From the NCBI RefSeq assembly GCF_003334335.1, contig NZ_QOWQ01000098.1: a stretch of 1,853 nucleotides of DNA; one strand, given 5' to 3'. Positions 1 through 1,853 of the stretch are shown here, piece after piece; positions within the stretch are counted from its first letter, which is position 1, and every line of letters starts with the position of its first letter. Origin of the DNA: Escherichia coli. GTDB lineage: Bacteria > Pseudomonadota > Gammaproteobacteria > Enterobacterales > Enterobacteriaceae. The notes beneath the pieces were generated by a model that saw only the letters and a program-made list of their open reading frames with translations, was not told the origin of the DNA and made no database searches. The translations under genes and the position numbers were made by a program.

Positions 1-631
1 GTGGTCCGGGTGGTCCGGCCTCTCCACGTGGGCCGGTGTCACCTTTCGGCCCCGGCGGTCCGCCCGGGTCACCTTTATCGCCCTTCGGTCCCTGTGGACC
101 TGTTTCTCCCCGTTCTCCCTTTGGCCCCGGCTCACCTTTTGGTCCGACCGCCCCCGTTGCCCCGGCTGGTCCCTGTGCCCCTGTGGCACCCTGTGGACCT
201 GTGTCCCCCTTCTCGCCCGCCGGTCCCCGGGCATTCTCTGCCCGTTTCTTCGCTTCCTCTGCACTCGCCGCCGACGCTTCAGCACGCTTCAGGATTTCCG
301 CTGCCACCGCTTCCAGCTCTGCAAGCGCTTTCGGGTAATACTGCGCCTCATCCTGTTCCATCAGAAATTTATTCAGCGTTCCCGGCTCAGAATCCGCCTT
401 CACCAGAATGTCACCCACATACGACGGGGCGTACCCTTCCGTGTTCAGCGTCACCCGGTACCACCCCGGCTCCACATCAAAACTGTAACTGCCGGTTTCC
501 CCCGGCTGCCCCTGCGCCACCGTGGTGACTATCACTGTCTCTGTGGTGCGTCGCGCTTTCAGCTCTATGGTGCATCCCGGCACCGGCTTCCCGGTGCCGT
601 CCTTCAGCACGCCCGATATTCTGACTGTCAT
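1..631 (-). CDS. stf: Side tail fibre protein, Stf-like N-terminal domain followed by collagen-like Gly-X-Y repeats; partial, 3' end runs off the window start
   Basis: The minus-strand frame (plus-strand triplets starting at position 2) is open from the ATG at 629-631 to the window edge; I checked every plus triplet in that frame for tta/cta/tca and found none. GGGAGA lies 5 nt upstream of the ATG. The translation [28 protein letters not shown]... matches, from memory, the N-terminus of lambda Stf ([17 protein letters not shown]...). Residues ~136-210 are Gly-X-Y triplets ([55 protein letters not shown]...). It is absent from the supplied ORF track, probably because it has no in-window stop. 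Confidence 0.8.
2..226 (-). repeat. Collagen-like Gly-X-Y triplet-repeat coding region within the stf-like gene
   Basis: Nineteen consecutive G-X-Y triplets from residue 136 (plus ~226) are followed by a 1-residue register shift and then more triplets to the window edge. Very GC-rich DNA (hand count 45/60 G+C over 1-60). A 14-bp exact direct repeat CCCTGTGGACCTGT occurs at 90-103 and 189-202. The proline-rich plus-strand ORFs 1..528 and 36..338 are the antisense shadow of these Gly/Pro codons. Confidence 0.8.
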
Positions 632-636
632 AGATT

Positions 637-642
637 TCTCCC
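637..642 (-). promoter_or_regulatory. Shine-Dalgarno sequence for the stf-like gene
   Basis: Plus-strand tctccc at 637-642 reads GGGAGA on the minus strand, separated by a 5-nt spacer (AATCT) from the ATG at 629-631. Confidence 0.6.
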
Positions 643-644
643 AT

Positions 645-677
645 AAAAAAAACCGCAGTACCGGTTACCCGGTCTGC
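645..677 (-). terminator. Intrinsic-terminator-like hairpin plus T8 tract between J and stf, on the coding (minus) strand
   Basis: The minus strand reads GCAGACCGG-GTAA-CCGGTACTGC (9-bp GC-rich stem with a 1-nt bulge and a 4-nt loop; plus coordinates 655-677), then GG, then TTTTTTTT (plus-strand A8 at 645-652). The T-run ends 13 nt before the stf ATG. Pairing was done by hand; no free energy was computed. Confidence 0.45.
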
Positions 678-713
678 GATCAGGGGTATAAATTGTGACT
701 GGCTGGTGTTAAA

Positions 714-737
714 GGGTGCCGTCAGTCAAAGGCACCC
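714..737. other. Inverted repeat / potential stem-loop in the J-stf spacer
   Basis: GGGTGCC (714-720) and GGCACCC (731-737) form a perfect 7-bp inverted repeat around a 10-nt loop. It is not followed by a convincing U-tract on either strand (the minus strand continues TTTAACACC). Confidence 0.25.
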
Positions 738-815
738 GTGGATAATGTACGATGTCCGGCTTTTGTCGTTTTCCGTCAATCACGAACAGATGGATGAAAC
801 CTCACTATCCACCTG

Positions 816-1853
816 TCACGATGCGGTATCAAAATCGTCTGTATAGGATTTCAGGTAAAACAGAACCGGGTCCGGGATCCGAATTTGACTCGTATCATGA
901 AGTATTGAACCACCCATGTAAAAAAGCACACCTGCTTCATACCTGAATGTAATTTCAACCCGCGCATCACCCTGTCCGGCAGGAATACCCCATGAGCCTG
1001 ACGCACTTCCGCCAACATCAGAATATACCGGCTCATATCTGCTGGCGTTTTTGGAAATCTGGACCTCCCGCTCCCCGGTTTTGACTTTGCCTGACCTGGC
1101 ATGAACGACAACTTTGTCATTTATCTTCATGATGAATTCACCTCTGGAAAAGGAATACGCCATAAGCATAAGCTTGCGATCAAACGGCATGTTGTCTTTC
1201 AGCAAAATCATTTTCTGAAAAGTCAGCTGGTTCTGAGTCATTACGCCCTGCCCCATATCAACCGTGTATCCCTTGACGATATCACCAATGATTCGGTCAG
1301 CGCTCATCGTTCCATTAATGGTGCAGTCTTCCGCAATCGTCACGTTATTCAGCGTACCGGAACTGGCACTGATATTCCCGCTGATATCGGCATTACGGGC
1401 CGTCAGCCTGCCGTCCGGCGTCAGGGAGAATGCCGGGGGATTGCCGCCGCTGGTAATGGTGGGGGCGGTGAGCGTCTTTATCAGCGCCTCATTGATAAAC
1501 GTCTGTCCCCCCTGCGTGACCAGTGCGGGTGTGGTATCACCATTCTCCGGATTAATGAATGCCACGCGGTCCGCTGCCAGCAGTATCTGGCTCTGCATCC
1601 CGTCAGGGGTGTTCTCAATACCGGCACCGATACCGGCAATATAGCGACGACCATCCTGCATCTGCTGTAGCTTCACCGCCCACATGCTGTTCAGGTCATT
1701 ATTTGTGTCCGTCTGCACACGCTGGATTTGCTGTATGGTGGCGTTCTGGTCCTCCAGCGTTTTACTGACCGTCTGCGTGATTTCATTGCGGGTTTCTGTG
1801 ATGGTGGTCTGCATTTCCGCCATCTCGTCCTTCAGCTGACTGTTGTCAATCTC
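816..1853 (-). CDS. J: Host specificity protein J (tail tip / central tail fibre), C-terminal portion; partial, 5' end lies beyond the window end
   Basis: The ORF track gives 816..1823 minus (335 aa) with the TGA stop at 816-818. The same frame stays open from 1824 to 1853 (…EIDNSQLKDE before the listed M), so the M at 1821-1823 is internal and not the true start. The translation contains MWAVKLQQMQDG, YIAGIGAGIENTPDGMQSQILLAADR, LTAPTITSGGNPPAFSLTPDG and NVTIAEDCTINGT, which I recognise as the conserved C-terminal third of lambda gpJ. The last ~151 aa diverge (see findings). Confidence 0.9.
   Translation of the reverse strand, partial: EIDNSQLKDEMAEMQTTITETRNEITQTVSKTLEDQNATIQQIQRVQTDTNNDLNSMWAVKLQQMQDGRRYIAGIGAGIENTPDGMQSQILLAADRVAFINPENGDTTPALVTQGGQTFINEALIKTLTAPTITSGGNPPAFSLTPDGRLTARNADISGNISASSGTLNNVTIAEDCTINGTMSADRIIGDIVKGYTVDMGQGVMTQNQLTFQKMILLKDNMPFDRKLMLMAYSFSRGEFIMKINDKVVVHARSGKVKTGEREVQISKNASRYEPVYSDVGGSASGSWGIPAGQGDARVEITFRYEAGVLFYMGGSILHDTSQIRIPDPVLFYLKSYTDDFDTAS

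Follow-up and report, generated by a model that had tools for sequence, protein, structure and literature searches.

The hok/sok locus (parB) of plasmid R1 is among the described systems closest to the locus analyzed here. It is known that full-length R1 hok mRNA is closed by a long-range stem, in which the 5′-terminal tac ('translational activator') element pairs with the fbi element of the 3′ UTR, approximately 60 nt past the hok stop codon, and that this stem blocks both translation and Sok access until slow 3′ processing removes fbi (PMC9841398). Phages Sp5 and 933W carry toxin-antitoxin (TA) cassettes of the hokW/sokW type (PHROG 251). HokW-SokW is a working TA system (PMC8621323), and Hok cassettes are enriched in prophages (bioRxiv 10.1101/2025.08.07.668861).

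A further point of reference is provided by the morons, such as lom, that lambda-type phages carry between J and the side tail fibre genes. These are autonomous promoter-to-terminator units placed between late genes, which is also the layout of the locus described below, and in related phages Lom is found at the same position. Unlike these morons, our locus had a TA cassette as its cargo and is now empty. Decayed chromosomal hok copies have long been known, and inactivation is common. In K-12, according to what Pedersen and Gerdes are said to have reported in 1999, hokA, hokC and hokE are associated with IS elements, and hokB and hokD are mutated or rearranged. The decayed K-12 loci keep most of the cassette, whereas in our case a clean internal deletion has left only the promoter, 16 nt of the 5′ end and the 3′ UTR.

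The locus lies in a 1,853-nt stretch of Escherichia coli DNA (the window). Both gpJ and a tail-fibre gene are on the minus strand, and the spacer between them (815..632) is 184 nt long. At 79 nt past the J stop in the transcribed strand there is a palindrome, GGGTGCCGTCAGTCAAAGGCACCC, at positions 714-737, consisting of two perfect 7-bp arms and a 10-nt loop. It reads GGGTGCC GTCAGTCAAA GGCACCC in the plus strand and GGGUGCC UUUGACUGAC GGCACCC in the transcribed strand (737..714). The first-pass annotation had described GGGTGCC-N10-GGCACCC at this place, between the J stop and a terminator-like hairpin, which the sequence confirms for both the repeat and, in minus-strand order, its location. 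It was also right that the palindrome is no terminator: the 714-737 hairpin was absent from the terminator scan, no U-tract follows directly 3′ of it (the flank is UUUAACACC), and the real terminator is found at 681-645. The features of the window are collected in Table 1.

Table 1. Features of the window around the 714-737 palindrome
Feature	Position	Strand	Remarks
gpJ 3′ part (tail tip host-specificity protein J)	816..1853	-	stop 816-818; ORF 816..1823(-); PGAP 'gpJ' end equivalent in L001
Putative relic hok promoter	744..779	-	-35 TTGACG (779-774), 24-nt spacer, -10 TACATT (749-744); aligns with L004 1118-1154
5′ arm GGGUGCC, first 7 nt of hok mRNA, tac	731..737	-	putative +1 G737; Rfam RF01794 and two-piece alignment
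Hairpin loop	721..730	-	UUUGACUGA (730-722) is hok mRNA +8..+16; junction in GA (723-722); C721 is fbi side
3′ arm GGCACCC, fbi (fold-back inhibitory) of hok 3′ UTR	714..720	-	alignment to intact loci
Unstructured 32-nt C/A-rich 3′ tail of former hok mRNA	682..713	-	aligns with L003/L004 after fbi; predicted single-stranded
Intrinsic terminator of former hok mRNA	645..681	-	stem 681-651 (core 678-654), U8 652-645; terminator scan and fold
Tail-fibre gene 5′ part ('prophage tail fiber N-terminal domain')	1..631	-	ATG 631-629, SD GGGAG 642-638; PGAP in L001

As RNA, the palindrome was predicted to form a hairpin of -13.9 kcal/mol (z = -3.9). Its symmetry, on the other hand, is statistically weak. 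In dinucleotide shuffles of the window, perfect 7-bp inverted repeats with loops of 3-12 nt numbered 1.06 +/- 1.25, and at least one was present in 8% of shuffled 184-nt spacers (P ~0.08). It is homology, not symmetry, that raises the palindrome above chance. A separate perfect 9-bp inverted repeat, CGGCACCGG-cttc-CCGGTGCCG, is present at 578-599, where the fibre gene encodes the N-terminal part of its product, and has a GGCACC/GGTGCC core in common with the 714-737 palindrome.

The homology was found in a second group of genomes, which match only from window position 723, within the loop, down to the fibre gene, with approximately 79% identity. In these genomes gpJ is separated from the same fibre gene by a gene of the Hok/Gef family (46 aa). 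The relatives' Hok ORF matches PHROG 251 'MokW-like host killing' (category: moron) at 1.8e-21 and the NCBIfam Hok models at 1e-9, below the curated cut-offs. With at least 80% query coverage, the J-hok-fibre arrangement was found in 121 genomes and in phage 1720a-02. The cassette of these relatives shares about 79% identity with the hokW/sokW-type locus that Stx phages, 933W for example, carry, and both are morons located by tail or lom genes; the 933W cassette differs in coming after lom and in having another 3′ tail. The window itself has the mRNA 5′ end GGGUGCCUUU(C)GGCUGA and the fbi sequence GGCACCC of the hokW/sokW type (L011/L023).

The Rfam hok/sok model RF01794 matches the intact spacers. 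Phage-type loci scored 32-55 bits (E 1e-4 to 1e-10), under the gathering score of 59, and R1-type loci 93-105 bits. In 11 phage-type relatives position 1 of the model fell on GGGUGCC; the first model position is at GGGUGCCUUUGGCUGAUGG, which corresponds to the 5′ arm of the window together with 9 of the 10 loop nucleotides. The first-pass annotation had looked to relatives with the same gene order for conservation of the palindrome. It is not conserved there: the J-hok-fibre loci carry both arms, without a local hairpin. L028 (320-948), one of the intact loci compared below, has two tandem hok/sok cassettes by an ogr/delta gene in a P2-like prophage.

In the intact cassettes the two arms are far apart. 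The hok mRNA begins with GGGUGCCUUUGGCUGA... (tac), and the fbi side, ...UCAGCC..GGCACC(C), is found approximately 345 nt downstream. In all 13 intact loci compared, the first 7 nt of the mRNA, as placed by Rfam, are complementary to a 7-mer located 57-63 nt past the hok stop codon, whereas among control 7-mers taken from these loci only 0.2-1% are matched there by a perfect complement. The pairing was counted from an in-register table together with the 7-mer control; a MAFFT alignment of tac, linker and fbi shifted the R1-type row by one column.

The pairing GGGUGCC/GGCACCC is perfect in five phage-type loci (L011, which is phage 933W, L012, L013, L023 and L025), where GGCACCC lies 58-60 nt past the hok stop. 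In L003 and L004 GGGUGCC faces GGCACCG, giving six pairs out of seven and a second helix, GGCUGA/UCAGCC. L008 and L010 have GGCACCU, with G1 in a G-U pair, L026 has GGCAUCC, also with one G-U pair, and L028 has GGCCCCC, with one mismatch. The R1-type plasmid loci L030 and L032 have GGCGCUU/AAGCGCC, which is again perfect although five of the seven pairs are changed on both sides in comparison with the phage type. These G-U variants and compensatory changes indicate pairing in RNA, transcribed from the gene strand, and not a palindrome recognized in DNA. The window has precisely GGGUGCC and GGCACCC as its arms, which makes its local hairpin the tac/fbi helix with its 'loop' of about 345 nt cut to 10 nt. 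A loose scan of viral contigs for collapsed hairpins of the form GGGTGCCTTT-N0-30-GGCACC revealed a hok promoter context in none of 119 extra loci, among the matches listed.

To locate the deletion we used a two-piece local alignment; a one-piece MAFFT alignment of the window with intact spacers misplaced the 5′ half of the window. Positions 782..722 of the window (minus strand) match L004 1118-1170, that is, the hok promoter and the mRNA from +1 to +16. The tac element is present in this piece: GGGUGCCUUUGACUGA (737-722, minus strand) differs from intact +1..+16 by one mismatch. Positions 723..612 (minus strand) match L003/L004 1501-1606, the 3′ UTR from ..GA(C/T)GGCACC through the terminator to the fibre ATG, and here 720-714 (minus strand), GGCACCC, aligns with intact fbi and is fully complementary to tac. 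The last position of the 5′ piece is L004 1170 (..CTGA), and the 3′ piece begins at L003/L004 1501 (GAC/GATGGCACC), where L003 has exactly GACGGCACC.

Approximately 330 nt between L004 1170 and 1501 are missing from the window. They comprise ucb and the rest of the leader, the Sok target with sok, mok, hok and a GC-rich 3′ hairpin. Consistent with this, the window contained no Hok-like coding remnant in tblastn searches with the relatives' Hok and R1 Hok (E >= 0.85, i.e. noise), the feature in question being a Hok/Gef ORF of about 46-52 aa. There was also no Rfam match at E <= 1 in the window, so no Sok/hok leader (RF01794) was detected. The two alignment blocks overlap in GA, and L004-type sequences read GATGGC at both sides. 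Short direct repeats at both breakpoints make the deletion look like a product of slippage or recombination between them.

Two other loci have lost part of the cassette at the same end. L006 (1440-1480) and L009 carry an independent deletion of approximately 103 nt between CCGGATAGC, inside hok, and CCGGATGGC, at fbi, which truncates hok to its 5′ part and keeps sok. The right-hand breakpoint repeat is common to this deletion and to that of the window, which suggests that the fbi-side repeat is a deletion-prone site. Both deletions appear to lose the toxin with or before the antitoxin, as expected for TA loss that can be survived. In L029 (1-340 and 287-453), an R1-type plasmid hok has an IS150 transposase gene immediately upstream, the RF01794 match is weak (31.9 bits) and the 5′ end is not GGCGCUU; its tac end is probably disrupted. 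Decay of hok cassettes is thus a repeated event, with the L006/L009 deletion and the IS150-flanked L029 as examples.

The window is 99-100% identical to E. coli lambdoid prophages and to the inducible phages PhiR12_1/2/4/5. Among 5,426 complete E. coli genomes only 29 have the whole spacer, in every case with at least 97.6% identity. We compared 13 copies of the deletion allele, namely the window, L001, L002, L007 and nine contigs from IMG/VR; to these nine, one genome contributes three separate prophages. The deletion junction is identical in all 13, and the local hairpin is present only in copies of this one allele. The simplest reading is a single deletion event, the product of which was spread with lambdoid prophages or recombined among them. 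Divergence between the copies is small: the spacer has six variable sites, none of them in the 24-nt palindrome, against approximately 0.8 expected by chance. With so little divergence, the deletion alleles carry no signal of selection on the palindrome.

The flanks of the deletion are distinctive as well. We defined window-type flanks by a 7-nt duplication in the promoter (CGGACATCGTACATT promoter) and a 7-nt insertion in the 3′ tail (CCCCTGAT). The promoter duplication and the deletion are fully linked in every collection searched. No intact cassette with such flanks was found in the complete E. coli genomes, IMG/VR or the species-representative genomes, and the IMG/VR search for the window-type 3′ tail or promoter duplication returned the same deletion allele only. 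The direct ancestor therefore has to be reconstructed from relatives that are approximately 80% identical in the 3′ part. The insertion in the 3′ tail (682-688, minus strand; aligned CCCTGAT) is located right before the terminator and distinguishes the window from all intact J-hok-fibre relatives.

All intact phage-type loci have the same promoter geometry, TTGCC(G/C) - 17 nt - TA.A.T - 6 nt - GGG. In the window the corresponding sequence is TTGACG - 24 nt - TACATT - 6 nt - GGG, and the conserved geometry is lost. A 7-nt tandem duplication, CGGACAT|CGTACAT, at 758-745 (minus strand) has lengthened the spacer from 17 to 24 nt. Homology and spacing point to this element as the hok promoter, with a probable start at G737, and the lengthened spacer would be expected to cripple it. 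In agreement with this, the promoter scan gave no sigma-70 match at the relic, and there is no acceptable alternative -35. For hokW, a mapped 5′ end was looked for in Takada et al. 2021, where only the start of sokW is given. Position 776 is A in the window (-35 TTGACG) and C (TTGCCG) in the 12 other copies of the deletion allele.

Taken together, these data make it very probable that the hairpin is the scar of an internally deleted hokW-like hok/sok moron, a collapsed tac/fbi stem which most likely has no function today. Both halves of the relic are homologous to defined parts of intact loci, the breakpoints are located, hok and sok are lost, and the tac/fbi complementarity covaries between subfamilies. 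In the intact state the tac and fbi ends would pair and close the full-length hok mRNA, which would be untranslatable and hidden from Sok. A single deletion, flanked by short direct repeats (GA, in some relatives GATGGC) and spanning about 330 nt from mRNA +16 to fbi, would have fused these ends and turned the long-range helix into a local 7-bp hairpin with a 10-nt loop, leaving behind the hok promoter, the 3′ tail and the terminator. The relic is probably transcribed for the most part passively, within the late J-to-fibre transcript; read-through of terminators by late antitermination is established lambda biology.

By ancestry the relic is hok/sok. It has no toxin and no antitoxin, its promoter is altered, and it keeps tac, fbi and the terminator. 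In R1 the corresponding stem is long-range, encloses the whole mRNA and is regulatory, whereas the stem in the window closes a 10-nt loop and has nothing left to regulate. Compared with HokW-SokW, the window has wholly lost sok, mok and hok and cannot work as a TA system. A residual or new function of the relic appears unlikely, though its sRNA-like layout and a fold far better than that of shuffled sequences would speak for one.

Other explanations of the palindrome have to be considered against this background. The relic could have been exapted; its own promoter would then produce a non-coding RNA of approximately 90-95 nt with a regulatory role in the lysogen. The fold predicted for such a transcript (-34.6 kcal/mol, z = -4.6), in which the 5′ hairpin and the terminator are joined by a single strand, is far more stable than that of shuffled sequences, and the layout of the RNA resembles that of Hfq-dependent sRNAs, with the 5′ hairpin, 32 nt of C/A-rich single strand, a GNRA-capped terminator and U8. 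The -10 TACATT and its distance to +1 are intact, the C-to-A change at 776, found in the window only, gives a better -35 hexamer, TTGACG, and the allele persists in 29 genomes and in the inducible PhiR12_1/2/4/5. Against this stand the 24-nt spacing of the -35 and -10 elements in place of the conserved 17 nt, with no acceptable alternative -35, and the lack of any Rfam match in the window; moreover, the stability of the fold comes largely from the inherited terminator, and all copies belong to a single recent allele (identity above 97%) and show no signal of selection. We consider this explanation improbable, also in its boldest form, in which the fused hok UTRs would be expressed in lysogens as a stable RNA of about 95 nt that acts by base pairing or as a protein sponge. 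If true, the untranslated ends of a toxin mRNA would have given rise to an sRNA.

A processing or stability signal for the 3′ end of J mRNA, as an intercistronic element of the late operon, is somewhat less probable still. It was suggested in the first-pass annotation, and is favoured by the stability of the hairpin (-13.9 kcal/mol) and by its location in the transcribed strand, 79 nt past the end of J. However, relatives with the same J and fibre genes have 330 nt of hok/sok in place of the local hairpin, other lambdoid phages carry lom there, and conservation is limited to one recent allele. The suggestion was correct in placing the element at the RNA level, and failed in assigning it to the 3′ end of J, since the arms are the ends of hok mRNA. 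A chance inverted repeat without history would be compatible with the shuffling data (approximately one repeat per window, and one in 8% of spacers), but this very unlikely reading is refuted by the homology to intact hok loci: both arms, flanks included, align to defined parts of these loci, and the two parts are known pairing partners. The perfect dyad symmetry with a 10-bp centre would suit the binding site of a dimeric regulator, which the first-pass annotation had also mentioned. The half-sites, however, are approximately 345 bp apart in intact loci, the variants GGCAUCC (L026) and GGCACCU (L008/L010) keep RNA pairing by G-U and break the symmetry of the DNA, and the R1-type loci change both arms in a compensatory manner, as for RNA pairing. 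With the arms being tac and fbi of a hok toxin mRNA, a protein-binding site is without support and is the explanation to which we give hardly any credence.

As a separate candidate, a known prophage sRNA of the AgvB/AsxR type was tried and rejected; no match was found in Rfam 15, including AgvB, AsxR, STnc100 and Esr41. These four are listed in the Pas sRNA preprint, where Sok appears only as a neighbouring Rfam match.

With the hairpin read as a collapsed hok/sok moron, an unexplained palindrome in a prophage spacer becomes the footprint of a lost TA cassette, which is mainly an aid to annotation. The two records inspected carry no annotation within this spacer, yet the collapsed form is an ordinary outcome of gene decay. 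Collapsed relics of this kind may mislead the prediction of motifs or sRNAs in prophage spacers. The relic also illustrates how a type I TA module may be lost tidily and safely, toxin and antitoxin going out in one step by slippage between short repeats near fbi. The decay series at one site, with intact, 3′-truncated and fully collapsed forms, could be used in studies of TA turnover in phages. The current understanding of hok/sok is not changed by the relic.

Some further observations concern the parts downstream of the hairpin. The terminator is kept in all J-hok-fibre relatives. Its loop (664-667, minus strand) is a GNRA tetraloop, GUAA in the window and GAAA in intact relatives, and its stem has one bulged A, which is conserved. 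The fibre gene encodes collagen-like Gly-X-Y repeats in window 1-240 (minus strand), and its part in the window has a 99.4% match in phage P-EibA. In L001 (4223-7853) this gene precedes a DUF4376 gene and a YadA-C-terminal (Eib-like) gene. When carriers of one and the same spacer allele are aligned, 177 columns are variable within the initial 300 nt of the fibre gene, which may represent mosaicism or artefacts of alignment and truncation.
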